A DNA stretch of 64,000 nucleotides, taken from contig JAVKIP010000010.1 in NCBI GenBank assembly GCA_031459385.1, forward strand, positions 1 through 64,000. Reading direction: 5' to 3'. This DNA comes from Candidatus Fervidifonticultor secundus. GTDB taxonomy: Bacteria > Sysuimicrobiota > Sysuimicrobiia > Sysuimicrobiales > Humicultoraceae. A program made the translations under genes and the position numbers. The stretch's first letter is position 1. Each line of letters opens with the position of its first letter. The notes below the pieces were generated by a model. It did no database searches and was not told the DNA's origin. It saw only the letters and a program-made list of their open reading frames with translations. Shown here piece after piece: positions 45,185 through 62,021 of this stretch.

Positions 45185-45197
45185 GCGGGTCCGGGCA

Positions 45198-46142: not shown

Positions 46143-46762
46143 CCGATGCGGCCGTAGGCCTGCTGGACCACCGCGGCCCGCGCGGCCTCCAGCGCGGCCA
46201 GCTGCGCCTGGACCTCGGCCCACAGTTCGTCGCTCCAAGCGCCGCCGATGCCCGCCAGGTTGATGCGGACGTTGAGCGCCGCGCTGGCGGCTGCGGCCTC
46301 GGCCATCACCGCGGCCACCGCCGCGTCGCTGAGCACCTGCGGGTTACCCTGCGCGGCGGCGATGCGAGAGAGGGCGCCGACCTGGCCGCACAGCGCCACG
46401 ACTTCGGCCGGCACCTCGGCCGCCTCGCGCAGCGCGGCGCGGGTGGCCTCCCGGCGGGCGGCGCGCTGCTCGTCGGTCTCGCGCGGCAGCCGGTACGCGG
46501 CCATGACCCGGCGAAACGCGTCGGCGTCGCGGTCGATCGCCGCCAGCAGCCGCGCCCGCAGCGTCGCAGCGTCGTCGCGGACCCTGCGCATCTCGTCCTC
46601 GACCGCCGCGAACTTCTCCTTGCCCACCGTCAGGTTGGCCACCATCCCGACCAGGGCGGCCGCCACCGCGCCGACCAGCGCGGCGGCCGCACCGCCGCCG
46701 GGCTCGGGCGCGCTGGAGGCCAGCCGGTCGAGGAACTGCTCGATGGACAGCTCCGGATACAT
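46139..46762 (-). CDS. Cyclodeaminase/cyclohydrolase family protein (FTCD_C, FchA-like)
   Basis: FLDRLASSAPEPGGG, MVANLT.GK, D..AF..VM.AYRLP, GN...SD, NVRINL. Confidence 0.9.
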   Translation of the reverse strand: MYPELSIEQFLDRLASSAPEPGGGAAAALVGAVAAALVGMVANLTVGKEKFAAVEDEMRRVRDDAATLRARLLAAIDRDADAFRRVMAAYRLPRETDEQRAARREATRAALREAAEVPAEVVALCGQVGALSRIAAAQGNPQVLSDAAVAAVMAEAAAASAALNVRINLAGIGGAWSDELWAEVQAQLAALEAARAAVVQQAYGRIG

Positions 46763-46773
46763 GCCGTCCTCCT

Positions 46774-48126
46774 TCAGGCCCCCGGCACGCCGACGTCGAC
46801 CGCGGGCGCCGGTTGCGCGGGCGCCAGCAGGTGCGCGCGCACGGGCCCGGCGACGTGAAACGAGCCGGTGGCGCACACCACATCCTGGCGCCCGGCCGCG
46901 GCGATGGCGGCATCGGCCGCCGCCACCGGATCGTCCACCGTGCGCACACCGGCCACGTGCGGCCGGAACGCCGCCGCCACGGCCTCCGGCGCCAGCGCCC
47001 GCGGATCGTCGGCGCGCGCGGCCCAGACCGTGGTGGCGCGCGGCGCGATGATCCGCGCGATGCCGGCCAGGTCCTTGCTCCCCAGCAGCCCGACCACCAG
47101 GTGCACCCGGCGGCCGGGGAAGACCTCGTCGAGCACCCGCCGCAGCGCGCGGAACGAGACGACGTTGTGCGCGACGTCCACGATCACCACCGGCACGTCG
47201 CGCACGACCTCGACGCGCGCCGGCCACCGCAGCCCGGCCAGCCCGGCGCGGATCGCGTCCCCGTCCACGGTGAAGCCTTCGTCGGCCAGCGCCTCCGCCG
47301 CGGCCACGGCGCAGGCGGCGTTGAGGGCCTGGTGGCGCCCCAGCAGGGGCACGTGCAGGTCCGGGTAGGTCCCGCGCCGGCCGTGCACGGTCACGCGGGT
47401 ACCATCACGGGCGACGCGGCGGGTGCGGTAGCGGACGTCACGGCCGACACGCACCAGGCGCGCGCCCAGCCGGGCCGCAGCCGCTTCGAGCACGCGCGCT
47501 GCGGCCGGCGCCTGGGCCACGGTCACGACGGTGCGGCCGGGACGCATGATCCCGGCGTCCTCCGCCGCGATCTGCGCCAGCCGCGTGCCGACGATCTCCG
47601 TATGGTCGTAGTCGATGGTCGTGATCACGGCCAGACGCGCGTCGAGCACGTTGGTGGCGTCCAGCCGCCCGCCGATACCGACCTCGACCACGCCCAGATC
47701 CGCGCCCGCCCGGGCGAACGCCAGGAACGCCACCGCAGCAGCCGCTTCGAAGTAGGACGGCGGCCACCCGGGCCCGCCAGCCCCCGCCTCTACGGCCGCG
47801 CGGAGGCGGGCCACGAGGGCTGCAAACGGCTCGGGCGCCAGCCACTGGCCGTCGAGCTGGAACCGCTCGCGGATGTCCACGAGATGCGGTTTCGTGTACA
47901 GCCCGACGCGCCACCCCGCGGCCGTGGCGATCGCCGCGACCATGGCGGCCGTCGACCCCTTCCCCTTGGTGCCGGCGACCAACACCGAGGGAAAGCAGCG
48001 CTCGGGGTGCCCGAGCAGCGCGCACAGCGTCCGCATGCGGTCCAGCTTCAGGGCGCCGGTCGGCTGACCTGGCGGCCGATGCCGCAGCAGCCCGGTGAGG
48101 AAGTCGAGGGCCTCAGTGTAGGTCAT
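46774..48126 (-). CDS. folC: Folylpolyglutamate synthase/dihydrofolate synthase
   Basis: AGTKGKGST, PHL...RER, EVGIGGRLDATN, DVAHN. Confidence 0.95.
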   Translation of the reverse strand: MTYTEALDFLTGLLRHRPPGQPTGALKLDRMRTLCALLGHPERCFPSVLVAGTKGKGSTAAMVAAIATAAGWRVGLYTKPHLVDIRERFQLDGQWLAPEPFAALVARLRAAVEAGAGGPGWPPSYFEAAAAVAFLAFARAGADLGVVEVGIGGRLDATNVLDARLAVITTIDYDHTEIVGTRLAQIAAEDAGIMRPGRTVVTVAQAPAAARVLEAAAARLGARLVRVGRDVRYRTRRVARDGTRVTVHGRRGTYPDLHVPLLGRHQALNAACAVAAAEALADEGFTVDGDAIRAGLAGLRWPARVEVVRDVPVVIVDVAHNVVSFRALRRVLDEVFPGRRVHLVVGLLGSKDLAGIARIIAPRATTVWAARADDPRALAPEAVAAAFRPHVAGVRTVDDPVAAADAAIAAAGRQDVVCATGSFHVAGPVRAHLLAPAQPAPAVDVGVPGA

Positions 48127-48172
48127 CGGCCGCGATCCCGCGCGGGCGGCCTGCCGCAGCCGCCCCGCACTG

Positions 48173-49267
48173 TCACGTCATCGGCACGCGGGTCAGGAGC
48201 CGCCCCTCGATCCGCTCGAGAATATCGGGAATGCTCGGGCCGGTGATGGTGAGGCCGTGGTTGCGCAGGCCTACCACGGCGCGGTTGGGGTCCGGGCTCT
48301 GCGCGACCAGCTCGGAGACGGCGCGAGCCAGCTCGTAGGTCCCGCACGGGTACTGGATCTGGGTGGACGTCACGCCCTCCATCCAGGCGTGGACGTGGAT
48401 AATGGCACCCACGCGCGGGTGCGCGGTGTAGATCATCCAGTGCTCGATGGCATCCACCGAGACCCGGCGCGGTTCGATGTGCGGCGGCACACTGAGCACG
48501 ATCACGTTGCGGGAGGGCTCGTACCCTTTGACCATCAGGATGTCCCGCCCGACGGTCTTCAGGTTGCCCTTGTTCACCCCGCTGGCGCTCATCCAGAAGC
48601 GCCGGGCGTCCTTGCGGACGCTGAGGTTGCCGTAGGAGAGGCCCCCGATGCCGAACAGGCGCTTGACGTGCACCAGGTCGCGCGGTGGCAGCAGCTCCTC
48701 GATGGGGAAGGCGGCGGGCAGCAGCTTGAGCTCGTCCAGACGGCGGCCGGCCTCGGCCAGCTGCCGGGTCAGCGCGTCGCCGTCCCACAGCTCGGGCTCC
48801 AGGTCGGGGTGGAACTCGTTGTTGATGACCAGCTGGGCAGATGCCAGCGGGTAGAGCCGCTCGAAGACCCGTGCGAAGAAGGTCGCGTCGTCGGCTTCGT
48901 CGATGAGGAAGTAGCCCTGCTCGAGGGTCACCACCAGCGCGCGGGCCCGGTGGGCCGCGGCGGGCACCAGGTAGATCACCATGTTGCCCAGGGTGCGGAC
49001 CAGCAGCGGGTAGACGGCCGGCAGGATCTCGCCCTCGGGCTGCGGGCCCTCGACGATAGAGACCACGAAGACGGCCTGCGCCTTGCGGCGGAAGGGCCGC
49101 GGCGCCTCCCGGTTCGCGAAGTGCAGGACCACGCGGGGCGAGCGCTCGGGCGTCGTCTCTTCCAACCCCCGGGCCCGCATCACCTGCTGGAGGCCCTGGG
49201 CGAACCACTCCTGCACCGGCGTGCGCGGTGCCCCGGAGCGAGCAAAGGTCATGGCGCGATCCTCCAC
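48173..49267 (-). CDS. Class II aldolase/adducin domain protein with extra N-terminal domain
   Basis: YGNLSVR, SVDAIEHWMIY, IHVH, LRNHG. Confidence 0.8.
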   Translation of the reverse strand: MEDRAMTFARSGAPRTPVQEWFAQGLQQVMRARGLEETTPERSPRVVLHFANREAPRPFRRKAQAVFVVSIVEGPQPEGEILPAVYPLLVRTLGNMVIYLVPAAAHRARALVVTLEQGYFLIDEADDATFFARVFERLYPLASAQLVINNEFHPDLEPELWDGDALTRQLAEAGRRLDELKLLPAAFPIEELLPPRDLVHVKRLFGIGGLSYGNLSVRKDARRFWMSASGVNKGNLKTVGRDILMVKGYEPSRNVIVLSVPPHIEPRRVSVDAIEHWMIYTAHPRVGAIIHVHAWMEGVTSTQIQYPCGTYELARAVSELVAQSPDPNRAVVGLRNHGLTITGPSIPDILERIEGRLLTRVPMT

Positions 49268-49345
49268 GGCGCTGGGCGCATCGGTCTTCGAACTCCGCTC
49301 CTTACTCTAGCGCAAAATGCCGGGCGCCGCCGCAGGCCGTGGCGG

Positions 49346-50317
49346 CTACCGCGCCCGCATCAGCACGAACGACGCCAGTGCCTGCAGGCTCGCCCGGGCC
49401 GGTCCGGGCGGCAGCGGGTGGAGCGCGGTCACGGCCCGGTCGGCGTAGGCCTGCGCCACGTGCAGCGCCCGCCGCACGCCGCCGTAGCGATCCACGAGCG
49501 CCTGCAGTTCGGCAAGCCCCCCGGCCCCACCGCGGACCAGCGCCCGCAGGCGGTCGCGATCCGCCGGGGGGGCCTCGCGCAGCGCGGCGATGACCGGCAG
49601 GGTCGTCTTTCCGGTGTCGATGTCGCTGCCGATGGGCTTCCCCATGGCCTCGGGGTCGCCGACCAGGTCCAGCGCATCGTCGGTGATCTGGAAGCACATC
49701 CCCCAGGCCAGGCCGAAGGCTTCGAGCGCGTCGGCGACCGCGGGTGTAGCCCCGGCTACCAGCCCGCCCGCCCGGCAGGCCGCCGCGAACAGGCGCGCGG
49801 TCTTGCCTTCGATGATGCGGAAGTAGACGGCGTCGTCGTCGTAGGGCTCGCCGCCGACCTTGGTCGCCAGGATCTCGGCCTCGCTCATGGCCACGGCCGC
49901 CCGCGCGATCGTCGGCGCGACCTGGGGATGCCGGATCCGGCTCACCAGGTCGAACGCGGTCGCGAAGAGGTAGTCGCCCAGCAGCACGGCGATCTGGTTG
50001 CCCCAGAGCACATTGACCGTGGAGACACCGCGGCGCAGATCGGAGGCGTCGATCACGTCGTCGTGGACCAGCGAGGCGATGTGGATCAACTCCACGGCCC
50101 CGGCCAACCAGAGGCGCTGCTCGTCGGCCCCGCCCGCCGCCGCCGCCGACAGCAGCGCCAGCGCCGGGCGGACCAGCTTGCCGCGCGAGGCCAGCACGTG
50201 CTCGACGAGCTCGCCGATGAAGGGGTCGTCGGTGCGCAGCTCGCGTCGCAGCAGATCGTACAGCCCCTCGAGGTCGTCGGCGACGGGCCGGTAGATCTCC
50301 TGGAGATCCAACGCCAC
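49346..50317 (-). CDS. Long-chain polyprenyl diphosphate synthase (quinone side chain)
   Basis: GKLVRP, ASLVHDDVID (FARM), GKTA, FQITDDALD (SARM). Confidence 0.93.
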   Translation of the reverse strand: MALDLQEIYRPVADDLEGLYDLLRRELRTDDPFIGELVEHVLASRGKLVRPALALLSAAAAGGADEQRLWLAGAVELIHIASLVHDDVIDASDLRRGVSTVNVLWGNQIAVLLGDYLFATAFDLVSRIRHPQVAPTIARAAVAMSEAEILATKVGGEPYDDDAVYFRIIEGKTARLFAAACRAGGLVAGATPAVADALEAFGLAWGMCFQITDDALDLVGDPEAMGKPIGSDIDTGKTTLPVIAALREAPPADRDRLRALVRGGAGGLAELQALVDRYGGVRRALHVAQAYADRAVTALHPLPPGPARASLQALASFVLMRAR

Positions 50318-50319
50318 GC

Positions 50320-50736
50320 TCAACGGTCCACCCTGATGGTCATCGCCATGCCGGCCTCGCGGTGGCCGGGGATGTTGCAGTAGGCGGTGTGCGCTCCCGG
50401 CGGCAGCTCGAAGATCGCGGTCCTGGTCTCCCCTGGCGGCACGCCGTCGATGGCCGCGCCCGGTATCGCGTCGACGACCAGGTTGTGCTCCACCAGCCCC
50501 TCGTTCCTGACCCGCACGGCGATCCGCCCGGCCCGCACCACGACCGAGGGCGGCGCAAACGCCCACTCGCGCGCGACCACCTCCACGGTCGCCGCCGGGG
50601 AGCGCTCGGGCGACCCGCTCCGCGGACCGCAGGCGCCGCCAACCAGTGCCAGCACCAGCAGCGCCGCGCGGTAGGCCCGCAGGCTCCGCCGGTGCCCTGA
50701 CCCCCTCTCTCCCGGCGAGAGAAGCCGCCGTCTCAC
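50320..50736 (-). CDS. Cupredoxin (type-1 copper) lipoprotein
   Basis: Lipobox-like GGAC; EHN and CNIPGHREAGM. Confidence 0.88.
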   Translation of the reverse strand: MRRRLLSPGERGSGHRRSLRAYRAALLVLALVGGACGPRSGSPERSPAATVEVVAREWAFAPPSVVVRAGRIAVRVRNEGLVEHNLVVDAIPGAAIDGVPPGETRTAIFELPPGAHTAYCNIPGHREAGMAMTIRVDR

Positions 50737-50746
50737 GCCCTAGCCT

Positions 50747-50851
50747 TCAGGCTTCAGCGATGAGGCCGAACGACGCGACGAACGCCAGCAGCAGGAAGAA
50801 GAAGACGTAGAAGAGCAGGTAGGCCAGCCAGACGCGCAGCGGGCGCTTCAT
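50747..50851 (-). CDS. 34-aa single-TM protein (below ORF-track cutoff)
   Basis: GGAGGAGGG RBS, ATGA overlap with the mvhD-like stop; MKRPLRVWLAYLLFYVFFFLLLAFVASFGLIAEA. Confidence 0.7.
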   Translation of the reverse strand: MKRPLRVWLAYLLFYVFFFLLLAFVASFGLIAEA

Positions 50852-51336
50852 GCCCCTCCCTCCTCCGCAGGCTGGGCGGCGGCCGCCGGCCGCCGCGCGG
50901 GCCCCGTGCCGCTGGCTGCCGGCCCCAGGGCCCGGAGGCGCTCCACCATGGCCGCGATGTCGGCGAGAAACGCCTCCCGGTCGTGGAGCCCATGGGCCAG
51001 CATCTGCAGGCGCTCCGGCGGCACCCTGCGTCGCTGCAGCCGCCGCTGCAACTGGTCCACGCGCTCGCGCATCAGGTAGTTGCCCTCGCGGTTCAGGCAG
51101 TCGCCGTAGGGGCACCCGACCACGAAGACGCCGTCGGCGCCGGCCTTGAGCGCGTCCTCCAGCCAGCCTGGCCGGATGAAGCCCGAGCACGGGATGCGGA
51201 TGAGGACCACGGACGGGTGGGCGAGCAGCCGGCCGGCCGCATCCGCCAGGTCGGTCGTGGCCACCGCCCAGTCGCATACGAAGCCCACGATCCGGGGAGC
51301 CCAGGCGCCGTGCGCGGTCGATGCCTGCGCCGTCAT
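50848..51336 (-). CDS. MvhD/FlpD-like [2Fe-2S] protein
   Basis: IVGFVCDW, IRIPCSG, GADGVFVVGCPYGDC..REGN, PERL; ATGA overlap with the upstream gene. Confidence 0.9.
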   Translation of the reverse strand: MTAQASTAHGAWAPRIVGFVCDWAVATTDLADAAGRLLAHPSVVLIRIPCSGFIRPGWLEDALKAGADGVFVVGCPYGDCLNREGNYLMRERVDQLQRRLQRRRVPPERLQMLAHGLHDREAFLADIAAMVERLRALGPAASGTGPARRPAAAAQPAEEGGA

Positions 51337-52518: not shown

Positions 52519-52788
52519 TCACGGCACGGGCTTGACCCACCGCCCGCGCAGGTCGTCCTCCGCCTCGGCGCGGCGCGGCCCGATCGTCCCCAGCTTGCGG
52601 AGCAGCAGCAGGATCAGGCCGTAGACGATGAACAGCACACCCAGGGCGGCGCCGCCGAGCTGCCAGAACACGCGGCGCTCGGCGCTGCCCAGGGCCTCGC
52701 CCAGCACGATGAGCGCCGCGCAGGCCGCACCCACCACCGCGAGCCCCAGGACCCCGCTGGTGTACCTGCGGCTGCTGTCCTCCATCAT
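52519..52788 (-). CDS. Small two-TM protein
   Basis: ATGA overlap with the upstream gene; two hydrophobic segments. Confidence 0.7.
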   Translation of the reverse strand: MMEDSSRRYTSGVLGLAVVGAACAALIVLGEALGSAERRVFWQLGGAALGVLFIVYGLILLLLRKLGTIGPRRAEAEDDLRGRWVKPVP

Positions 52789-53066
52789 GCCGATCCGGCA
52801 CCCCCCTGCGGGCGATCCGCCCGCCGGTCCAACCAGCGGTCGAACAGCGGCATCGGCCGACGCGTGCGGCCCGCGGTCCGGTCGGCCGCGTAGATGACGA
52901 ACGCCAGGTACCCCAGGCTGACCCAGAACGCCGCCATCCAGCCCAGGGCCTCGACCGGCCCGTACAGCCGCTGGCCTTCCAGGGCACTGCGCACCCCCTG
53001 CCACAGGCGCGAGAAGCTCTCCACCGCCACCGCGAACGCCGCCACGGAGCCGCCGAGCCGCAGCAT
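52785..53066 (-). CDS. Small two-TM protein
   Basis: Starts 3 nt after the cytochrome b stop; two hydrophobic segments. Confidence 0.7.
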   Translation of the reverse strand: MLRLGGSVAAFAVAVESFSRLWQGVRSALEGQRLYGPVEALGWMAAFWVSLGYLAFVIYAADRTAGRTRRPMPLFDRWLDRRADRPQGGAGSA

Positions 53067-53069
53067 CGC

Positions 53070-54257
53070 CTAGTGCGCCTCCGCCCGCGCGACCCCGGCG
53101 GCTGCCACCGCGCGGCCGGAGGCGCCGGCCGCTGCCTGCGCCGCGGCGCGCGCCTGCTGCCGGCGGTACCGGAGCTCCCAGACGAACGCCAGCGTCAGCA
53201 CGACGGTCGTCACCAGCAACACCAGCGGCGGCTCGCGCTCGATCACAGCGATGTTGAACAGGATCAACGCCGTGAAGACCAGGAAGTAGACCAGCGCCAG
53301 CAGACCCACCACGAAGAAGAACGGACGCTCCAGGGGCCGGCGGCCCTTGCTGCGGTCGAGAAACGGCACCAGCATTCCGAAGCCGATCAGCAGCCCGGGC
53401 CCCAGGCCCGCCCACAGCGGCGGCGTGTACTTCACGTACTGGTAGAGCGCCAGGAAGTACCAGTCCGAGAGGATGGGCAGCGGAGTGCGGTTGGGATCGG
53501 CGCGGCGGCCGAGCTCCGCCGGCAGCGCCCAGGAGATGTAGACCAGCATGACCGAGAACAGCAGGATCGGAAACAGCGACATGTTCAGGCGCTGCCGCCG
53601 CGTGCGGTAGTAGAACACCTCGATGACGATGAGCAGCACCAGCGAGATCCCGAAGTGCAGGGCGTAGAAGCGCGTGAGGGTGGCGGCGCCGATGGCCGGC
53701 CCGCCCAGGAACAGGTAGGCGATCATGGAGCCGACCTGGAACCGCTCGCCGATGACCGGGATCTTGGCAGTGAGCTCGTCGAAGTACACCGGCACGGTCA
53801 GCACCGTCTTGGCCGCCCAGAACGCCCGCTGGTTCCAGATGAGCAGGTAGCCGGTGATCCCGGAGATCATGGCCAGCACGAGCCCCGCGAACCCCCAGAT
53901 CCAGCTTAGCTCGCCCGGCCGTTTGTACTCGCCCAGGAAGTACATGCGGTAGATGCGGAGGATGATGCACAGGATCACGCCGTCGGCCGCGTACTTGTGG
54001 ACGCCGCGGATCAGCCAGCCCAGCGGCACCGCGTGCTGGATGTGCAGGATGGAGTTGTACGCGCCCTCGGGCGTCGGCTCGTACCAGAGCATGAGCAGGA
54101 TGCCGCTGACCACGGTGACGAGCCAGAAGTAGTACAGCATCGGGCCCAGCAGGTAGAACGGGTTCGCCTGCCGGGTCACCATCGTCTCGTCGAACAGGTC
54201 CAGCCGGCTCCGGCGGTCCCGGTACCACTCGCGCAGGTTGTCCCACACCCTGGCCAT
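53070..54257 (-). CDS. Cytochrome b of a Rieske/cyt b complex (unsplit), lacking both heme bH ligands
   Basis: YEPT..AY.S, GWLIRGVH, GEYKRPGELSWIWG, GYLLIWNQRAFWA, TLTRFYALH, TPLPILSDWYFL, VPFLD. Confidence 0.92.
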   Translation of the reverse strand: MARVWDNLREWYRDRRSRLDLFDETMVTRQANPFYLLGPMLYYFWLVTVVSGILLMLWYEPTPEGAYNSILHIQHAVPLGWLIRGVHKYAADGVILCIILRIYRMYFLGEYKRPGELSWIWGFAGLVLAMISGITGYLLIWNQRAFWAAKTVLTVPVYFDELTAKIPVIGERFQVGSMIAYLFLGGPAIGAATLTRFYALHFGISLVLLIVIEVFYYRTRRQRLNMSLFPILLFSVMLVYISWALPAELGRRADPNRTPLPILSDWYFLALYQYVKYTPPLWAGLGPGLLIGFGMLVPFLDRSKGRRPLERPFFFVVGLLALVYFLVFTALILFNIAVIEREPPLVLLVTTVVLTLAFVWELRYRRQQARAAAQAAAGASGRAVAAAGVARAEAH

Positions 54258-54302
54258 CGGTCCTCGCTACGGTGTCTGGTGGGGCGCTGCAGGACCCCGC
54301 CC

Positions 54303-54965
54303 CTAGGCGATCCCGCCCGGCTCGACGTGGCGCACCAGCACCTGGTCGCCCTCGACGGTGTAGAAGAACGTCCGCGGGGGCCGCGGGGCTGGTCCCGACA
54401 GCACCCGCCCGGGCTGCTCGGGATCGGCCGGGTCGTAGATGCTCAGGTGGCACGGGCATCCCATGAGGGCATGCTGGCGGCTCTTGGGCGGGACGTAGCC
54501 ACCGTAGCCCGCGGTGATCTCGCGCCAGTCGGCGACGAAGTTGTAGATGCACCCCAGGTGCGGGCAGATCCGGGAGAAGACGATGATCTCGCTCTCGGTG
54601 AACTGCGGCGTCTCCCCGATGGCGCGCACCCAGTCCCAGGGCATGCGGATCTTGGTCGGCAGGCGGATCGCCACGCCCGGCACCGACGCGCTCCGGAAGC
54701 CCTCGGGCGTGTACTGGGGGTACTTCTGGGTGTAGACAAAGTACTTGAAGTCCCAGGGCTTCTGCAGTTCGGCCAGCGTCGCCGCCACGACCGGCTCGCC
54801 CGCCGGCGGATCGTGCTTGGTCGGCTGCAGCACGTTGAAGGGCTCCACGTTCGGCTTGAGGAAGCGCAAAAGCGGCGAACCGAACGCGACGAGTCCTCCC
54901 ACCAGCGGCAGCGCCGCAGCGGCGCGGAGGAAGCGGCGGCGATCCAGGACGCGGTCGTGGGCCAT
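54303..54965 (-). CDS. Rieske [2Fe-2S] protein with Tat signal/anchor
   Basis: DRRRFL, CPHLGC, CPCHLSIY, GPAPRP. Confidence 0.95.
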   Translation of the reverse strand: MAHDRVLDRRRFLRAAAALPLVGGLVAFGSPLLRFLKPNVEPFNVLQPTKHDPPAGEPVVAATLAELQKPWDFKYFVYTQKYPQYTPEGFRSASVPGVAIRLPTKIRMPWDWVRAIGETPQFTESEIIVFSRICPHLGCIYNFVADWREITAGYGGYVPPKSRQHALMGCPCHLSIYDPADPEQPGRVLSGPAPRPPRTFFYTVEGDQVLVRHVEPGGIA

Positions 54966-55041
54966 CAGCAAGCTCCCACATCCAGCATACACGGCCGCCA
55001 CGCGCCCGGGGAAGTGGACCCGACCGGACCGGCCATCGGTC

Positions 55042-55989
55042 TCACGGCTGCTGCCCGCGCGGCGGCGCGTAGTCGTACATGAAAGTCCGCACGTAGTCCA
55101 CCAGTGCCCAGATCTCGTCCTCCTCGAGCTTGCCCCGGTACGCGGGCATCAGGCCGCGGCCGTCCGCGATACGCTGGAAGAGCTCGGTGGGCTTGCGGGC
55201 CGCCAGGAAGTTGGCGTCGGTGAAGATGCCGGCCCCGACGCGATCCCGCCAGCCCCACACGCCGGCCGCCATCTCCTCGGACAGCCGGCCGCCCCGGCCG
55301 TCGCCGGCGGGGCCGTGGCAGTCGGCGCACGTGGCGACCCGCCCGCCGCCGATGTCCAGCGCCCGGGTCTGATAGATCTCCCTACCGCGCGCGATGGTCT
55401 GCGGCGTGGTGGCGAATGTCCAGGCGTAGAACAGCACGTCCCAGATCTGCTCGTCGGTGAGCGTCGCCGGCCCCTTGTTGGCGCCGTAGGCCGGCTTCCG
55501 GCCGAACGCCGGCATGGCCGTGTGCGGGCGGCCGAGCTTGATCGTCTCGAAGAGCACCCATGGCGCGTTCAGGCGCATCGCGATCTGGTTGTGGAAGTTG
55601 GCGGGACGGGACGGGATCCTCTCACCCTTGATCGCCAAGCCCCAGAGCCTGAAGAAATCGGTGAGGGGGTTCTTCTGCGGCGACGTCAGGCCGCTGGCGG
55701 CCGGACCGTCGCCGAACCCTTCGTCGCCGTGACAGACCGCACAGGTGCGCTCGAACGTGGCCCGCCCGCGCACCGCGGAGGGTTTGAAGCCGGGGGCGCC
55801 GTCCACCAGTGGCCGCAGGACCGCCTGTTGCCCCAGCCCCGCACCAACCGTCGCCGCGGCGCCGCGCACGCGCACGGTCGGCTGGCATCCCGCGGCGAAC
55901 ACAGCGACAGCGACGATCGCGGGGAGCACGCGCAGCGCGATCGTCAGCGAGCGGGCGGCTTCCATCGTCAACGGCATGAACGATTCCAC
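55042..55989 (-). CDS. Di-heme cytochrome c lipoprotein
   Basis: Lipobox AAGC; CAVCH and CADCH; AMPAF and LMPAY distal Met motifs; start uncertain. Confidence 0.9.
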   Translation of the reverse strand: MESFMPLTMEAARSLTIALRVLPAIVAVAVFAAGCQPTVRVRGAAATVGAGLGQQAVLRPLVDGAPGFKPSAVRGRATFERTCAVCHGDEGFGDGPAASGLTSPQKNPLTDFFRLWGLAIKGERIPSRPANFHNQIAMRLNAPWVLFETIKLGRPHTAMPAFGRKPAYGANKGPATLTDEQIWDVLFYAWTFATTPQTIARGREIYQTRALDIGGGRVATCADCHGPAGDGRGGRLSEEMAAGVWGWRDRVGAGIFTDANFLAARKPTELFQRIADGRGLMPAYRGKLEEDEIWALVDYVRTFMYDYAPPRGQQP

Positions 55990-56056: not shown

Positions 56057-57010
56057 TCAGATCCGTCGCCACAGCGTCCATGCGAGCCCGACGGCCAGGA
56101 GGCCCGCCAGGGTGCCGGCCGCGGTCGGTGCCGGCCATCGCCGCACGGGCGGGACGCCCGCGACGGTCAGCACCAGGTCGCCGGGGCGCAGGGCGCGCGC
56201 CCAGGCCCGCGCGTACCGCCTCCCCTCGCTCTCGAGTGGGGGCGCCGGCTGGAACTGCGGGGACCGAATCTCGGCCGGCGCGCCGGCGAACACCACCGCG
56301 CGGTCCACCGGCAGCCGGAGCGGACGATCGAGGACGGCCGCGCCCGCACCCGCCACGGCGTAACTGAACGAGAGCTGGTCGGCGCCGGGGCGCACGACGA
56401 TCCGGTCGCGGATCTCCCCGCGCTCCACGCGCGGCTGGTGGAAGCCGGCGTGGTAGCGCACGTACCGCGCTCCCTGCGGCAGGGGGATGCCGACATCGCC
56501 GCGGTATGTGCGTACCGTCGTGTTGCGCAGGTGCCAGACCTCGAAGACGCGCACGTAGCCCGCGTGCACCTCGACCACCATGCCCACCAGCGCCACGCGC
56601 AGCGGGACGCCGGATGCCACGTCGTACACCAGCAGCTCCACGCGGACCGGCCCACCCGCCACCACGACGTGCGCCGCGTAGACGACGCCGGCGTGGCTCG
56701 TCTGGACCAGATAGCGGCCGTCAGCCAGGCCGCGGAACGCGAAGCGCCCCGCGCCGTCGGTTCGGACCCGACCCACGTCCCGAGATCCGATGGGGCCCAC
56801 GGACACGAGGAGGACGGCCTGGCCCGCGGCAGACCGGCCGGTCGTGCCGTTGCGGACGACGCCGGCGATCGCCCCGGCGCTGGCCTCCGGCGCAGGCGAC
56901 GACCCGGAGGGCAGCGCGCCGGCTGCCGGTACGGCGGACGCAAAGATCGCAGGCAGCCAGAGCGCGACCAGTGCAGCGGCCAGGGGCGCGCGGCGCGCCG
57001 CTCTCCTCAC
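56057..57010 (-). CDS. Exported beta-sandwich (carboxypeptidase-regulatory-like) protein with C-terminal TM anchor
   Basis: Signal peptide, IAGVVRNGT, TDGAGRFAFRGL, C-terminal TM. Confidence 0.7.
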   Translation of the reverse strand: MRRAARRAPLAAALVALWLPAIFASAVPAAGALPSGSSPAPEASAGAIAGVVRNGTTGRSAAGQAVLLVSVGPIGSRDVGRVRTDGAGRFAFRGLADGRYLVQTSHAGVVYAAHVVVAGGPVRVELLVYDVASGVPLRVALVGMVVEVHAGYVRVFEVWHLRNTTVRTYRGDVGIPLPQGARYVRYHAGFHQPRVERGEIRDRIVVRPGADQLSFSYAVAGAGAAVLDRPLRLPVDRAVVFAGAPAEIRSPQFQPAPPLESEGRRYARAWARALRPGDLVLTVAGVPPVRRWPAPTAAGTLAGLLAVGLAWTLWRRI

Positions 57011-57282
57011 GCGCCGCCTCCGTCCAGGTGCCGCGCCGCGCGGGCGGCCGCATCTTCGAGCGTCGCCCGCTGTGCGTGGTAGTCAGCGTCGCTCAGCTTG
57101 CCCGTGGCCCAGTCGAGCTCGAGGTCCTGGAGCGCGCGCAGCGCCACGGCGTGCGCGGCCTCCAGGGCCGCGCGCGCGTCGCCAGCCTCCACGGGCGCGC
57201 GGCGCCAGGTGGGGGCCAGCAGGTACCACGCTAGCGCCATGGCGGCGACGAGGAAGGCAGCCGCGGACGCGTCCTCGATCAC
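57007..57282 (-). CDS. CcmI-like short membrane protein
   Basis: TM followed by LQDLELDWATGKLSDADY; GTGA overlap with ccmF. Confidence 0.7.
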   Translation of the reverse strand: MIEDASAAAFLVAAMALAWYLLAPTWRRAPVEAGDARAALEAAHAVALRALQDLELDWATGKLSDADYHAQRATLEDAAARAARHLDGGGA

Positions 57283-59273
57283 GGCGCACCCGCCGCCGGC
57301 CAGGCTGCGGGCTCCCCCAGGGGCAGCGCGGCCAGGTGCCGCCGGCGGCGCTCGGGCAGCGCTGCGAGCAGCGCGCCGAGGGCCAGGATCCCGCCACCGG
57401 CCCACAGCCAGGACACCAGCGGATGGATCAGCACGCGCAGCGTCGCACGGCCCTGGGGCGTCCAGTCGGCCAGGATCACGTAGAGGTCTTCACGCGGGGA
57501 GGCCCGGATCGCCACCTCGTGCATCGGCTGCCCCTGGGTCCGGTAGAACAGGCGCCGGGGCCGTAGGTGGCCGAGCGCCCGCTCGCCCCGCCACACCGCC
57601 ACCGTGGCCTCGACGACGTCGATCCCCGGCCGCTCGGTTGCGTCCAGCCCCCGGAACTCGAGCGTGTACCCGCCGAACTGGAACCGTTCGCCCGCCCCCA
57701 CGGTCGCCTGACTCTGCGTGGCGAAGGCGCTGCTCCCGGCGACGCCCGCCAGCATCAGGAGCACGCCGAGGTGCACCGTGTACCCCCCGTAGCGGCGGCG
57801 GTTCCGCCAGACGAGCTGTCCCAGCGCCCGGGCCACGGGCTCGCCGCGCGCGACGCGCACCCGCATACCGCGCACCGCCTCCAGCCCGATCGTTGCCACG
57901 ACGAACAGCACCAGGACGAAGACCAGCAGCGCGCCCGCGGTCCGCACACCCGCAGCGGCAAGGACCGCGCCGCCCAGAAGGGCCGCCGCCGCCGGCCAGG
58001 CGAAGTTGCGCGCCAGCTGCTCGGGCGACGCCCGCCGCCAGGGCAGCAGCGGCCCCACCCCCATGAGCACCAGGAGGCCCACGGCGATGGGCGTCATCAC
58101 ACGGTTGAAGTACGGCGGCCCGACGTTGCTCTTCACGCCTTCGATCGCCTCGGTCAGCGCGGGGAAGATCGTCCCCACGAAGACCACGGCGGTGGCCACC
58201 ATGAAGAGCAGGTTGTTGGCCAGGAAGGCGGTCTCACGGCTCACCACCGCCTCGATGGCCGCCTCGCGCCGCAGCTGGTCCCACCGCCACGCCAGCAGGC
58301 CGAAGCCAACCAGCAGCACCACCGCCAGGAAGCTCAGGAACGCGGGGCCCACGGCCGACAGCGCGAACGAGTGCACCGACGCGATGATGCCGCTGCGCAC
58401 CAGGAACGTCCCGAAGAGCGTCAACCCGAAGGCCAGGATGACGAGCGCCACGTTCCACGTCGCCAGCATGCCGCGGCGCTCCTGGATCTGGATCGAGTGG
58501 AGGAACGCGGTCGCCACCAGCCACGGCATCAGCGCGGCGTTCTCCACGGGATCCCAGGCCCAGTAGCCGCCCCAGCCCAGGACCACGTACGACCACTTGG
58601 CGCCGAAGAGCAGGCCGAGCGAGAGGCACGTCCAGGCCACCAGCACCCAGCGCCGCGCCAGCGCCACCCAGGTTTCGTCGAGCCGGCCGGTCACCAGCGC
58701 CGCGATCGCGATCGCAAAGGGCACGCTCATGCCCACGAACCCCAGGTAGAGCATCGGCGGGTGCGCGGCCATCCACGGGTTGCGCAGCAGCGGGTTCAAG
58801 CCCTGCCCGTCGGGCGGCGGGGGCACCAGGCGTGCGAACGGGTCGCTGGCCCATGCCAGCATGCCCGAGAAGAACAGCGCCACAGCCAGGAGCACCACCG
58901 TCGCCGGCGCCTGCAGCGCCGGATGCCCCCGGAGCGCGCGGATGCCGGCTACCAGATAGCCAGCCAGGATCAGCGCCCACAGCAGCAGGGCGCCGTCGTG
59001 CCCGCCCCAGAATGCGGTGAGCGTGTAGAACAGCGGCTGGGCTGACTCGCTGGCGAGCGCCACGAACCGCACCGAGAAGTCGCGCTGGAGGAGCGCCGTC
59101 CACAACGCCGCCGCCGCCAGCGCCACCAGCAGCGCCCACGCGGTTGCCGCACGGCGCCCGGCCTCCAGCAGGCCGCCGTGCTGACGGCGGATGCCGAGCA
59201 CGGTGACCACGATGCCGTAGGCCGCGGTGACCACGGCCGCCAGGACCGCGAACCGGCCCACCTCACCCGCCAT
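57279..59273 (-). CDS. ccmF: Cytochrome c heme lyase CcmF
   Basis: GLNPLL, HPPMLYLG, WGGYWAWDPVENA, SVHSFA. Confidence 0.96.
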   Translation of the reverse strand: MAGEVGRFAVLAAVVTAAYGIVVTVLGIRRQHGGLLEAGRRAATAWALLVALAAAALWTALLQRDFSVRFVALASESAQPLFYTLTAFWGGHDGALLLWALILAGYLVAGIRALRGHPALQAPATVVLLAVALFFSGMLAWASDPFARLVPPPPDGQGLNPLLRNPWMAAHPPMLYLGFVGMSVPFAIAIAALVTGRLDETWVALARRWVLVAWTCLSLGLLFGAKWSYVVLGWGGYWAWDPVENAALMPWLVATAFLHSIQIQERRGMLATWNVALVILAFGLTLFGTFLVRSGIIASVHSFALSAVGPAFLSFLAVVLLVGFGLLAWRWDQLRREAAIEAVVSRETAFLANNLLFMVATAVVFVGTIFPALTEAIEGVKSNVGPPYFNRVMTPIAVGLLVLMGVGPLLPWRRASPEQLARNFAWPAAAALLGGAVLAAAGVRTAGALLVFVLVLFVVATIGLEAVRGMRVRVARGEPVARALGQLVWRNRRRYGGYTVHLGVLLMLAGVAGSSAFATQSQATVGAGERFQFGGYTLEFRGLDATERPGIDVVEATVAVWRGERALGHLRPRRLFYRTQGQPMHEVAIRASPREDLYVILADWTPQGRATLRVLIHPLVSWLWAGGGILALGALLAALPERRRRHLAALPLGEPAAWPAAGAP

Positions 59274-59415
59274 CTGGGCCGCGTGCCGCGCCCGCCGGTC
59301 CGCGCGACGTCAGGATGCGCTCCACGCGCTCGAGGTCGCCGATCAGGCGCCACAGCCCGACGGCCACCGCGACCCACAGCGGCACGAGCACCGCCACCAG
59401 CGCGGGCGCGCTCAT
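59263..59415 (-). CDS. 50-aa single-TM protein, CcmD-like (below ORF-track cutoff)
   Basis: ATG 4 nt after the ccmE stop; MSAPALVAVLVPLWVAVAVGLWRLIGDLERVERIL...; overlaps the ccmF start. Confidence 0.5.
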   Translation of the reverse strand: MSAPALVAVLVPLWVAVAVGLWRLIGDLERVERILTSRGPAGAARGPDGG

Positions 59416-59419
59416 CGCC

Positions 59420-59809
59420 TCACCGCTCAGGGTACCGCTCCCGGTACTCGGTGGGGTGCGTGGAGATCACCTGCGTGGCCTGGAAGACGCCCCCGCCGAC
59501 CAGGCGCCCCTCGACCAGCACCCCCCGGCCCTCCGCGAACAGATCCGGTAGCGGTCCGGCGAACTCCACGCGGTAGGCGGCGGTCCCATCGGCCAGCGTG
59601 AACTGCACGCGCCCGTCGCCCTTCGCCACCGAGCCAGGCTGCACGGCGCCGGCCAGGCGCACCCGCGCCCCGTGGAGGTCCGGGCGCCTGGCGAACTCGG
59701 CCGGCGTGAGGTAGTAGACCACAGCCGAGCGCACACCCTGGTAGGCGGCGGCGGCCAGGGCGGCCACCACCAGCGCCCCGGCGATGAGCAGCTTGCGCCG
59801 GGCGGTCAC
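59420..59809 (-). CDS. ccmE: Heme chaperone CcmE
   Basis: YYLTP, VRLAGAV.PGS, PDLFAEG, HPTEY (HxxxY). Confidence 0.92.
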   Translation of the reverse strand: MTARRKLLIAGALVVAALAAAAYQGVRSAVVYYLTPAEFARRPDLHGARVRLAGAVQPGSVAKGDGRVQFTLADGTAAYRVEFAGPLPDLFAEGRGVLVEGRLVGGGVFQATQVISTHPTEYRERYPER

Positions 59810-59982
59810 GGCCCGGTCCCCCTGCCGCCCCCAGCCGCGGGCGTCGCCGCCGCAGGACCCACGGCGGCGGGCGCCGCGGCCTCGGTCAGTTCGTGGACCA
59901 GGCGCTGCCGCGCTGCCAGCGTGAGCACGTAGCATCCGACGCCCACGACCACGGCCAGGTAGGCCAGCGCCACGAAGGCCAT
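59806..59982 (-). CDS. ccmD: CcmD-like single-TM protein
   Basis: MAFVALAYLAVVVGVGCYVLTL; located between ccmC and ccmE. Confidence 0.6.
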   Translation of the reverse strand: MAFVALAYLAVVVGVGCYVLTLAARQRLVHELTEAAAPAAVGPAAATPAAGGGRGTGP

Positions 59983-59984
59983 GG

Positions 59985-60641
59985 CTACCCGGCCTCCAGC
60001 CGCTCGACCGCGGCGGCCAGTACGCGCTCCTGCCGCGCCCGCACCCGCAGCAGCGCTGCTGCCAGCACCAGGAACGCGGCGATGTTGACGACCAGGGGCG
60101 CCAGCATGCTCGGCGGCAGGGCTGGGCCCTCGGGGCGGAACACCGTGGCCTGCGGGTGCAGCGTACGCAGCCAGACCACGGACCAGTGGATCAGCGGGAC
60201 GTCCAGCAGGCCCACGATCCCCAGCACCGCGGCGGCACGCGCGCCGCGCTCGCCCGGGGCCCATACCCGCAGCGCCAGATACCCCACGTAGACGAACCAG
60301 AGGACGAGCGTCGTGGTCAGGCGCGCGTCCCAGGTCCACCAGACGCCCCACACCGGCCGGCCCCACAGCGCGCCGGTCGCCAGCGTGAGGGTGATGAACA
60401 GCACGGCGACCTCGGCCGCGCCCAGCGCCAGGTGGTCCCACGACGGGTCGCGCCGCCACAGGAAGAGCGCACTCGCCACGCCCACCACGCCCAACGCCAG
60501 GTAGGCGGTGAGCACGCTGGGCACGTGCACGTACATGATGCGCTGCGGGATTCCCTGGATGGCTTCGTCCGGCGCCAGCGCCAGGGCCCAGGTCATGCCC
60601 ACCACGACCAGGGCCACACCGAGGATCAGCAGCAACCGCAC
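59985..60641 (-). CDS. ccmC: Heme exporter/WWD protein CcmC
   Basis: RIMYVHVP, WGRPVWGVWWTWDARLT, RTLHP; start uncertain. Confidence 0.95.
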   Translation of the reverse strand: MRLLLILGVALVVVGMTWALALAPDEAIQGIPQRIMYVHVPSVLTAYLALGVVGVASALFLWRRDPSWDHLALGAAEVAVLFITLTLATGALWGRPVWGVWWTWDARLTTTLVLWFVYVGYLALRVWAPGERGARAAAVLGIVGLLDVPLIHWSVVWLRTLHPQATVFRPEGPALPPSMLAPLVVNIAAFLVLAAALLRVRARQERVLAAAVERLEAG

Positions 60642-60669
60642 GAGGGCGCCCCGGACCGGAGGTGAGCGG

Positions 60670-61317
60670 TCATTCCTCGACGAGGTGGTCGAACAGCAGC
60701 ACGCTGGCTGCGGCAAAGAGCATAGCAAAGGCCCCCAGCAACTGCAATTGCGGTGCCACGGCCCGCAGCGGTGCGCCGTCCAGGATCTGGGCGGTGGCCG
60801 CCGTGGCCGCGGCGAGTACGGGCAGCGCCACCGGGAGCAGCAGCACCGGCAGCAGCGCCTCGCGCAGCCGCGTGAAGGTCACCAGGCCGCCGAACAGGGT
60901 GCCGGCCGCGGCCAGCCCGGCTCCGCCCAGGCCCAGGACCGGCGCCAGCCGCAGCGCGTGGCGCCAGACGGCCTCGGAGTAGAGCACCGCAAACGCCGGC
61001 AGCGAGATGATCTGCACGGCTGCCAGCGCCGCCCAGCTGGCCAGGGCCTTGGCGAGCACGACGGTGCCGCCGTCGACCGGGGCCAGGCGCAGCGCGGTCA
61101 GGTGGTCACGCTCGAGCGCGAACAGGCGCGCAAAGGCCAGCGTCGCCGCGAACGCGTAGGTGACCCACATGGCCACCGCCGCGGCGCCGGGCTCTCCCCG
61201 CAGCGCGGCCAGCACCACCACCAGCAGCAGCGCCAGCAGCGCCATGGCGCCGACCAGCTCGCGGGTGCGCCACTCCACGCGCAGGTCCTTCACCAGCAGC
61301 AGCCAGAGGGTCTTCAC
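60670..61317 (-). CDS. ccmB: Heme exporter permease CcmB
   Basis: KDLRVEWRT, FALE, REALLPVLLLP. Confidence 0.92.
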   Translation of the reverse strand: MKTLWLLLVKDLRVEWRTRELVGAMALLALLLVVVLAALRGEPGAAAVAMWVTYAFAATLAFARLFALERDHLTALRLAPVDGGTVVLAKALASWAALAAVQIISLPAFAVLYSEAVWRHALRLAPVLGLGGAGLAAAGTLFGGLVTFTRLREALLPVLLLPVALPVLAAATAATAQILDGAPLRAVAPQLQLLGAFAMLFAAASVLLFDHLVEE

Positions 61318-62021
61318 AGCCGCGCCTCGCGGAACCAGCCGGCCAGCGCGGCGTCGTCGAGCGCGGTTGCCGGGTCCACCGGCACCAGGCGGCCTCCGCG
61401 CAGCACCACCGCCCGGTCGGCGAGGGCGCGGGCCTGTGCGGGGTCGTGGGTCGCGAAGATCACCGTGCGCGCGGCGCGGCCTGCGCGCAGCACCGCGGCC
61501 ACGCGCGCCGCGGCCTCCAGGTCGAGGCCCGTGAACGGCTCGTCCAGCAGCAGGAGGGCCGGGTCGTGGAGCAGCGCCCGGGCCACGTCGGCCTGCTGGC
61601 GCTGCCCCCGCGAGAGCACGCGCGCCCGCCGCCCGCGCAGGGCGTCGAGCCCGAGCGCCTGCAGCGTTTCGGCGACCCGCACGGGCGGCAGCCCGTAGAG
61701 CCCGGCGAAGAAGCGCAGGTTCTCTTCCACTGTCAGCCCGTCGTAGAGCAGGGACTCGTGCGGCACCAGCGCCAGCCGGCGCCGCACCTGGGCGGGCGGC
61801 GCTCCCGGCTCCCCGAACCAGACGACCCCGCCACGGGTGGGCCGCAGCACGGTGGCCAGGATGCGCAGCAGCGTGGACTTGCCCGAGCCGTTCGCGCCCA
61901 GCACCGCCACGGTCTCCCCGGCACGGACGCAAAGGTCCACGCCGCGCAGGACGACCCGGTGGTCGAAGGTCCTGACGACGCCCGCCGCCTCGACCACGCG
62001 GGCCGGGCCGTCGGCCGTCAC
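61314..62021 (-). CDS. ccmA: Heme ABC exporter ATPase CcmA
   Basis: GANGSGKS, LSRGQRQ, LLLDEPFTGLD; upstream of ccmB. Confidence 0.9.
   Translation of the reverse strand: MTADGPARVVEAAGVVRTFDHRVVLRGVDLCVRAGETVAVLGANGSGKSTLLRILATVLRPTRGGVVWFGEPGAPPAQVRRRLALVPHESLLYDGLTVEENLRFFAGLYGLPPVRVAETLQALGLDALRGRRARVLSRGQRQQADVARALLHDPALLLLDEPFTGLDLEAAARVAAVLRAGRAARTVIFATHDPAQARALADRAVVLRGGRLVPVDPATALDDAALAGWFREARL

Follow-up and report, generated by a model that had tools for sequence, protein, structure and literature searches.

Canonical Rieske/cytochrome b complexes are homodimers in which each cytochrome b subunit carries two haems b and a quinone reduction (Qi) site. How, then, could a cytochrome b be used that lacks the axial ligands for one of these haems? 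The question is raised by a gene at positions 53070-54257 (minus strand) of the window, i.e. the whole stretch of 64,000 nucleotides that was analysed (positions 1 to 64,000 of contig JAVKIP010000010.1, assembly GCA_031459385.1, Candidatus Fervidifonticultor secundus, phylum Sysuimicrobiota). The initial annotation, made from the letters alone, described its product as a cytochrome b that has lost both axial histidines of haem bH; the product is here called the R/E-type cytochrome b. Our answer, held tentatively and with a little less than even confidence, is that this protein may be the single-haem subunit, bearing the quinol oxidation (Qo) site, of a complex III built from two unlike cytochromes b. 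The second of these, here called the partner, is encoded in the same operon.

The open reading frame (ORF) begins with ATG and encodes a full-length cytochrome b of 395 amino acids. Both Pfam domains were matched: the N-terminal haem domain (Cytochrome_B, PF00033) with 113.9 bits against a cut-off of 27.2, and the C-terminal domain (Cytochrom_B_C, PF00032) with 29.6 bits against 20.7. The nearest solved chains by sequence were those of cytochrome b6 (E 1e-33), and bc1 cytochromes b were also matched. An AlphaFold2 model built with 96 sequences had a mean predicted local distance difference test (pLDDT) score of 95 and a predicted template modelling (pTM) score of 0.91, with continuous helices B (residues 80-107) and D (191-219). 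Comparison of the model with full-length bc1 cytochromes b by Foldseek gave a probability of 1.0 and a template modelling (TM) score of about 0.65.

Only two of the four axial histidines of cytochrome b were found: the haem bL ligands His87 and His201. The haem bH positions are occupied by Arg101 and Phe215. On helix B, the Arg codon read by the initial annotation 14 codons past His87 agrees in codon and coordinates, and its register was confirmed by alignment: in ungapped HMMER alignments with solved b6 chains, Arg101 lies opposite the second helix-B His of b6 and Tyr216 opposite the second helix-D His. When the profile of the R/E clade was aligned with that of 29 canonical cytochromes b, Phe215 stood opposite the canonical helix-D His. 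No His occupies the helix-D position in either register, so the reported Phe and Tyr at +14 and +15, with no second His, hold in both. A further placement, with the canonical helix-D His opposite Glu213, was given by MAFFT on mixed sets and was rejected: the profile-profile alignment gives Phe215, and some members of the clade have His at 215. The Cys that binds haem ci in b6 (YCLGG) is also absent, as had been noted for helix A, and Leu36 (YLLGP) is aligned there.

The Qo-side motif and the frame were both found intact, as had been claimed: the Qo-type motif ([S/P]DWY) is represented by D265 W266 Y267 F268 L269, which are invariant in the clade. The residues invariant in a 23-sequence alignment of the clade include D23, E24, G38, G52, R84, H87, R104, H201, E213, R223 and D265-L269. 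A substitute haem ligand was sought in this alignment, and the only invariant His were H87 and H201, with no invariant Met, Cys or Lys; likewise, no alternative ligand stood in register in the alignments with reference cytochromes b and b6. Because only the bL histidines are invariant and no Met, Cys or Lys is, the clade lacks a substitute strong-field ligand for a haem on the electrochemically negative side of the membrane (n-side). In its fold, two Pfam domains, bL ligands, Qo-type motif and adjacent Rieske gene, the protein resembles the canonical cytochromes b of bc1, b6f and bcc complexes; unlike them, it lacks two of the four axial His and the haem ci Cys, and a second, different cytochrome b is encoded in its operon.

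The same pattern was found in the relatives of the gene. In a search of 5.8 billion proteins, 777 relatives were obtained at E <= 1e-10 among 8000 candidates scored, and the best 120, from many assemblies with source names mostly 'Armatimonadota', were aligned with the query (70-97% identity). H87, R101, R104, H201 and E213 were each invariant in 121/121 rows. Position 215 was Phe in 88 rows, Leu in 28, Tyr in 3, His in 1 and Val in 1, and position 216 was Phe in 86, Tyr in 30 and Val in 5. The salt bridge that had been proposed between the introduced Arg and a Glu of helix D is compatible with the invariance of both residues; Glu213 is predicted to lie on a different helix face from the ligand, because it stands two residues ahead of the ligand position.

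Codon usage and reads were also consulted. In 25 genes, residue 101 was encoded by CGC (13), CGT (5), CGG (3), AGA (1) or Lys codons (3), and Glu213 by GAG (18) or GAA (7). Because the synonymous codons vary while the amino acid stays, the amino acids at 101 and 213 are, as judged from these genes, kept by selection and not merely inherited as a codon. Logan contigs from four runs of a single hot-spring study, which may represent the source sample, covered 53847-54453, which includes the codons of H87 and R101, with 0 differences; one of the runs (X3) also covered 52886-53717, with a single difference at 53421, outside the codons of F215 and E213. The helix-B codons were thus unchanged in four runs and the helix-D codons in one. 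Together with the conservation throughout the clade, the four different Arg codons and the confident model, this bears out the claim that the gene is functional and that, on the evidence of sequence, the loss of the bH ligands is neither sequencing error nor decay.

To assess the extent of the clade, 1.84 billion cluster representatives were searched exhaustively with HMMER; 4758 matched at E <= 0.001, and the best 150 were examined. Among these, the 18 full-length 50%-cluster representatives nearest to the query (P0121-P0136, P0141, P0142; 32-51% identical) all carried Glu at 213, and their helix-B residue was Arg in 17 and Lys in 1. Their helix-D position was Tyr in 10, His in 5, Arg in 2 and Phe in 1; over all the clade data, F, L, Y, H, V and R were seen there. 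With Arg or Lys universal on helix B and His still present on helix D in 5/18 representatives, the two ligand changes are separate, as had been supposed. Nearly all the remaining representatives of the best 150 have the usual four His. A regular-expression census of the ligand positions misplaced them in several canonical sequences and was applied only to the 18 clade representatives.

The haem domains were also placed in a maximum-likelihood tree (quick search; 74 rows, 192 columns), where each of three groups was set apart by a branch of its own: the R/E type (23 rows; Shimodaira-Hasegawa-like approximate likelihood ratio test, SH-aLRT, 98), the partner type (22 rows; 92) and the canonical type (29 rows; 92). 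Isolated ligand changes were also seen outside the clade: P0249 has the helix-B Arg and keeps the helix-D His, P0153 has the helix-B Arg with neither Glu213 nor the helix-D His, P0254 has Gln on helix B, and P0268 has Tyr on helix D.

The R/E clade was found in five taxonomic groups, the window's phylum and four others. In that phylum (94 species), matches to the clade profile at E <= 1e-50 were present in 82 genomes, and in 77 of these the best E did not exceed 6.5e-149; the tally includes two genomes flagged as unpublished (G016, G024), without which it is 80/92. With completeness of 90% or more and contamination of 5% or less required, the count was 47/54. The high-scoring matches are assigned to the R/E type by their scores, since the canonical and partner types reach about 200 bits at most. 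Within the family to which the window belongs, genus g12 had a match in 0/8 genomes, six of them at least 91% complete, which suggests a lineage-specific loss of the whole complex.

The operon lies on the minus strand in the order cytochrome c, Rieske protein, R/E cytochrome b, a 93-amino-acid protein, an 89-amino-acid protein, the partner cytochrome b, a FlpD/MvhD-like protein and a cupredoxin. For comparison, one genome per species was scanned and 80 loci were fetched: 26 had Arg or Lys at the helix-B position and 54 were canonical, with four His. A four-His cytochrome b-ferredoxin fusion and FlpD were present in 18/18 R/E loci with at least 3.5 kb of relevant flank, and in the window. Of the other eight R/E loci, three with a short flank show the start of the partner (among them the Anaerolineae locus, L011), and in five the sequence stops no more than 53 bp from the gene. 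In the canonical loci, a partner cytochrome b or its ferredoxin domain occurred in 0/54, with one FlpD-like match 4 kb away.

According to their records, the 18 linked loci belong to Candidatus Fervidifonticultor/Sysuimicrobiota/'Armatimonadota', an 'uncultured bacterium' (L012), Melainabacteria (including Obscuribacterales), Holophagaceae and Caldisericia. Melainabacteria are the non-photosynthetic sisters of the Cyanobacteria. Over these 18 loci, the pairwise distances of the R/E and partner cytochromes b were correlated with r = 0.97, a value reached in 0/2000 permutations; as far as sequence goes, the two genes have thus been inherited together or transferred together, which does not show that their products touch. 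In Melainabacteria and Holophagaceae, cbb3-type oxidase genes stand ahead of the cluster. The Caldisericia locus (L025:1111-7393) has the order Rieske, partner cytochrome b-ferredoxin, FlpD, Fer4, Fer4_22, an NAD_binding_1/DHODB iron-sulfur protein, R/E cytochrome b and a small ORF, an arrangement that ties the module to cytoplasmic redox carriers and possibly to an NAD(P)H module.

The partner is well conserved: its four haem His and eight Cys were invariant in 22 family members, and Fer4 families were matched. One further partner gene (L009:4656-5819) has an in-frame stop codon and was left out of the partner alignment for that reason. The partner has a Qo-like motif at about residues 247-252, which reads DWFF(L) in most family members, with D249 nearly invariant; in the window and its closest relatives it reads LDVFF, with Val in place of Trp.

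The place of the complex in the organism was examined in the window's assembly (59 contigs, 97.6% complete, 5.5% contamination). It holds no canonical cytochrome b: the three PF00033 matches are the R/E gene, the partner and a second R/E copy. A single haem-copper oxidase is encoded, and MenB scored above its equivalog cut-off; the futalosine pathway marker PF02621 was not found in this 97.6% complete genome. Because there is no canonical cytochrome b, one haem-copper oxidase and MenB, the R/E complex is probably the organism's menaquinol:cytochrome c oxidoreductase. The second copy lies on contig C29 (L002:3-2539), which encodes a cytochrome c, a Rieske protein and an R/E cytochrome b that is 84% identical and keeps the Arg and Glu; the contig breaks inside the cytochrome b gene, and the copy may be a paralogue or belong to another strain that was binned with this genome. 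Only one match was found in G001, a near-closed genome (4 contigs) of the same genus.

NrfD-family matches on contig C14 were considered as an alternative complex III and rejected as not obvious; they belong to two Psr-like molybdoenzyme sets (L090:32-12845), with molybdopterin, 4Fe-4S and NrfD membrane subunits. Between the two sets lie a NarJ-like chaperone and a 621-amino-acid Fer4 protein with a FlpD-like stretch (30.8 bits).

We propose that the two unlike cytochromes b would form a dimeric core, alongside the Rieske protein, the dihaem cytochrome c, the small membrane proteins and the FlpD/MvhD protein of [2Fe-2S] type. The R/E subunit would bind the outer haem bL only, having given up the inner haem bH site and its own Qi site. 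Menaquinol would be oxidised at the Qo site of this single-haem subunit; the first electron would pass by the Rieske cluster to the cytochrome c and the cupredoxin and on to an oxidase, and the second by haem bL across the dimer interface to bL' and then bH' of the partner. From bH' it would leave through the 2x[4Fe-4S] domain and FlpD on the cytoplasmic side, or pass to a quinone site on the partner. The n-side residues D23, E24, R101, R104, E213, R218, R220 and R223 may fill the former haem and Qi pocket, form a docking face, or do both. From what is established for bc1 complexes, the electron that a Qo site places on haem bL must have somewhere to go, and in a bc1 dimer the distance between the two bL haems is short enough for it to cross. 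In an engineered asymmetric bc1, transfer from bL to bL was catalytically competent (PMC4330944).

Several points weigh against this proposal. Helix-D His is kept in a minority of the cluster representatives, and Arg104 and Gly38 are still invariant in the R/E clade; their canonical counterparts presumably contact haem bH, so that their retention would be unexpected with an empty pocket. No cytoplasmic acceptor was identified within the window. A fused R/E-partner protein was sought among proteins of 693-2000 amino acids and none was found in 15 matches, a blank that is weak evidence: all 15 carry a c-type cytochrome or other haem-domain Pfam families, and of the six inspected by motif, all have the canonical helix-D His and five the helix-B His, one having no helix-B motif match. 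Finally, relatives of the partner (cytochrome b-FeS-MvhD) exist without a Rieske protein or an R/E cytochrome b (PMC4122944; preprint 10.64898/2026.01.22.701106), because of which the partner may be an autonomous module.

This last point leads to an alternative that we consider rather unlikely, namely that the operon, or a supercomplex, holds separate modules: an R/E homodimer with the Rieske protein and cytochrome c, working with no Q cycle, and apart from it the cytochrome b-ferredoxin/FlpD pair. Haem bL would then only hold an electron for a short time or act as a safety valve, with both electrons ending on the Rieske/cytochrome c side, while the cytochrome b-ferredoxin/FlpD pair would be linked to quinol or to an oxidase, as where it stands alone. 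The partner-type proteins without Rieske or R/E cytochrome b lie beside haem-copper oxidases or eNOR in the two sources just cited, the Melainabacteria and Holophagaceae loci carry the cbb3-type oxidase genes, and the partner keeps the Qo-like DWFF motif of its own. Separate modules would leave unexplained, however, that R/E is never found without the partner in the 18 informative loci and that the distances track so closely. From established knowledge of bc1, a low-potential electron with no exit from the Qo site would be expected to stall or leak to oxygen.

The same heterodimer could also run in reverse, with low-potential cytoplasmic donors feeding electrons by FlpD, the [4Fe-4S] clusters and the partner haems either to a site on the partner where quinone is reduced or to the bL pair, and the single-haem subunit serving the outer branch only; this we hold to be quite unlikely. 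It draws on the same linkage evidence as the forward path, direction cannot be read from sequence, and it has long been proposed that ferredoxin feeds electrons into b6f from the n-side (PMC5600118). Set against this, no donor is encoded in the window, and the branch formed by the Rieske protein, dihaem cytochrome c and cupredoxin points to net quinol oxidation.

It is improbable that the n-side pocket retains a cofactor, either a haem or, for example, a quinone, held by unusual ligands (Tyr, Glu, Lys/Arg, or five-coordinate). The invariance of Arg104 and Gly38, the prevalence of Tyr as the commonest helix-D residue (with His in the minority noted above) and the confidence of the model in this region would fit such a pocket, though the model carries no cofactors. 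The variation of the helix-D position, with Phe in the window, and the lack of an invariant His, Met, Cys or Lys on the n-side count against it. Arg is not known as an axial ligand of haem. An artefact or a decaying gene (sequencing or assembly error, or pseudogene) can be dismissed in view of the open frame, the five positions invariant in every aligned row across many assemblies, the synonymous variation at the key codons, the read contigs and the matches in most genomes of the phylum.

An extension of the proposed heterodimer, which we judge unlikely though worth stating, is an electron-bifurcating complex III, in which the low-potential electron from menaquinol would be exported through the partner as a reductant at the level of ferredoxin or NAD(P)H and the high-potential one would go to cytochrome c, cupredoxin and oxygen. 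A published parallel is that of the anammox complexes R/b-2 and R/b-3 (Kuenenia Kustd1480-1485 and Kuste4569-4574), for which bifurcation at the Qo site has been proposed to make NAD(P)H by cytoplasmic oxidoreductases, the low-potential electron leaving the membrane in place of a Q cycle (PMC12954380). Both systems wire a Rieske/cytochrome b core to cytoplasmic iron-sulfur (and flavin) subunits, and the Caldisericia relative has an NAD-binding subunit. The anammox models in that source are homodimers with bP, bN and cN haems and multihaem cytochromes c, whereas here one cytochrome b lacks the n-side haem ligands and a second supplies them. Neither an anammox-type NAD(P) oxidoreductase subunit nor multihaem cytochromes c were found in the window, and the NAD-binding subunit was seen only in the Caldisericia locus.

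Other known systems share single elements with the R/E operon. Kao & Hunte 2014 (PMC4122944) deemed the four His invariable and removed sequences in which one or more of them was missing; they also reported a Pyrobaculum cytochrome b without the fourth haem His, which they read as loss of the haem. As in the R/E clade, a haem bH ligand is thus consistently absent from a natural lineage. In the account available, its loss concerns the helix-D His only and one archaeal genus, whereas the R/E clade is bacterial, spans several phyla, has Arg or Lys on helix B and a variable helix D, and is linked to a four-His partner.

The same authors described a 'PDWF-FeS clade' in Magnetospirillum and Turneriella, which combines cytochrome b, a 4Fe-4S domain and an MvhD domain. 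In Ferrigenium, genes for cytochrome b-[Fe-S] and cytochrome b-[Fe-S]-FAD-NADH stand beside eNOR, and a supercomplex that couples NO reduction to NAD+ reduction was suggested (preprint 10.64898/2026.01.22.701106). The partner and FlpD are alike in composition. The available text of those reports mentions no linked single-haem cytochrome b or Rieske protein; in addition, as set against the 'PDWF-FeS clade', MvhD is a separate gene here and the window motif is LDVFF, not DWFF. Czapla et al. 2013 (PMC4330944) worked with fused B-B and BS-B cytochromes b in an engineered asymmetric bc1, which shows bL-bL transfer on the catalytic timescale, the step on which the proposed heterodimer depends; theirs is a laboratory construct of two ordinary cytochromes b with point mutations, not a diverged natural gene pair.

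No prior account of a cytochrome b without bH ligands paired with a second cytochrome b was found in the literature, covered mostly as non-subscription main texts, and the evidence points to a complex III of two unlike cytochromes b that is undescribed. The terms cytochrome b, Rieske, bc1 and complex III are all missing from the main text of the Sysuimicrobiota paper (PMC11604079). In the sources available, the Melainabacterial genes of the R/E operon are annotated as b6f subunits next to oxidases.

The four His have been treated as invariable, yet a whole clade, near-universal in the window's phylum, lacks the haem bH ligands in what would be its quinol-oxidising subunit. If the two cytochromes b form one dimer, the complex would be a natural version of the asymmetric enzyme that was engineered to prove bL-to-bL transfer. 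It would also allow a direct test of whether Qo bifurcation can make a low-potential reductant instead of a Q cycle, which has so far been argued mainly for anammox bacteria; on the bifurcating reading, it would offer thermophilic chemoautotrophs and Melainabacteria an alternative to reverse electron flow through complex I. For annotation, the R/E gene stands as the sole 'complex III' of the genome, and the Melainabacterial 'b6f-like' genes used in arguments on the origin of aerobic respiration belong to the R/E type. None of the seven operon proteins (0/7) scored above any curated NCBIfam cut-off; the best score of the cytochrome b was 135.3 bits against a cut-off of 325.

The features of the locus are collected in Table 1.

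Table 1. Positions of the R/E cytochrome b, its haem ligand positions and the genes around it (aa, amino acids)
Feature	Position	Strand	Remarks
Cytochrome c maturation genes, upstream	57279..61932	-	CcmF 57279-59273, CcmE 59420-59935, CcmB-like 60670-61932
CarboxypepD_reg-like protein, upstream of cytochrome c gene	56057..57010	-	29.8 bits, under the 32.3 cut-off
Dihaem cytochrome c, membrane-anchored (CAVCH, CADCH)	55042..55989	-	Two Pfam cytochrome c stretches
Rieske [2Fe-2S] protein	54303..55001	-	Twin-arginine signal RRRFLR; boxes CPHLGC, CPCH
Cytochrome b, 'R/E' type	53070..54257	-	bL ligands H87 + H201 and Qo motif SDWY kept; both bH ligands absent
His87, haem bL ligand	53997-53999	-	CAC
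Arg101, helix-B haem bH ligand position	53955..53957	-	CGC; 14 residues past His87
His201, haem bL ligand	53655-53657	-	CAC
Glu213, acidic, two positions ahead of lost helix-D ligand	53619..53621	-	GAG
Phe215, helix-D haem bH ligand position	53613..53615	-	TTC; 14 residues past His201
Tyr216, 15 residues past His201	53610-53612	-	TAC
Small membrane protein, 93 aa, C-terminal PLFDRW	52785..53066	-	Starts 3 nt past the cytochrome b stop
Second small membrane protein, 89 aa	52519..52788	-	Two hydrophobic stretches by eye; ATG overlaps the stop of the 93-aa ORF
Partner cytochrome b, 391 aa	51333..52508	-	H84, H98, H185, H199; two extra membrane helices; C-terminal 2x[4Fe-4S] ferredoxin domain
FlpD/MvhD-like iron-sulfur protein, 162 aa, four Cys	50848..51336	-	Pfam FlpD 100.7 bits vs 22.3; ATG overlaps the partner stop
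Cupredoxin (plastocyanin/azurin-like)	50320..50736	-	His...Cys...His...Met; Pfam 24.0 vs 21.2, 23.9 vs 27

The genes from the R/E cytochrome b to FlpD are tightly packed: start and stop codons overlap at the junctions 93-aa/89-aa and partner/FlpD, and the gaps between cytochrome b and the 93-aa gene and between the 89-aa gene and the partner are 3-10 nt. The Rieske gene lies 45 nt upstream of the R/E gene, a linkage also seen in most of the relatives' loci. The window's Rieske protein scored 17.2 bits with Pfam, under the cut-off of 20.3; its orthologues in the Melainabacteria (L014) and Caldisericia (L025) loci exceed it, with 39 and 46 bits. Despite its low score, the window's protein has the two cluster-binding boxes, the second of which reads CPCHLSIY. 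The Ser and Tyr of this box might mean a high midpoint potential. The cupredoxin is likely, from its sequence, to be a periplasmic electron acceptor.

The 93-aa protein had no Pfam or NCBIfam match. In Holophagaceae (L022, E 2.5e-10) and Caldisericia (E 1.9e-5), the ORF that immediately follows the R/E gene is related to this protein, and a Melainabacterial ORF (L014) was weakly linked to it, solely through the ORFs of these two loci. The 89-aa protein was conserved in L004, L005, L006 and L009 (tblastn E 4e-27 to 7e-9) and weakly in L007.

Upstream of the operon, the CarboxypepD_reg-like gene is kept at the same place in L004, L005, L006, L010 and L016, with a weaker tblastn match in L009. 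Downstream, a folate/one-carbon (C1) cluster adjoins the respiratory genes on the same strand (43961-50566): it holds genes for a polyprenyl synthetase, a class II aldolase-like ORF, a Mur-ligase-family (folylpolyglutamate synthase-like) protein, an FTCD_C cyclodeaminase domain, a FolD-type methylene-tetrahydrofolate dehydrogenase/cyclohydrolase and a zinc alcohol dehydrogenase.

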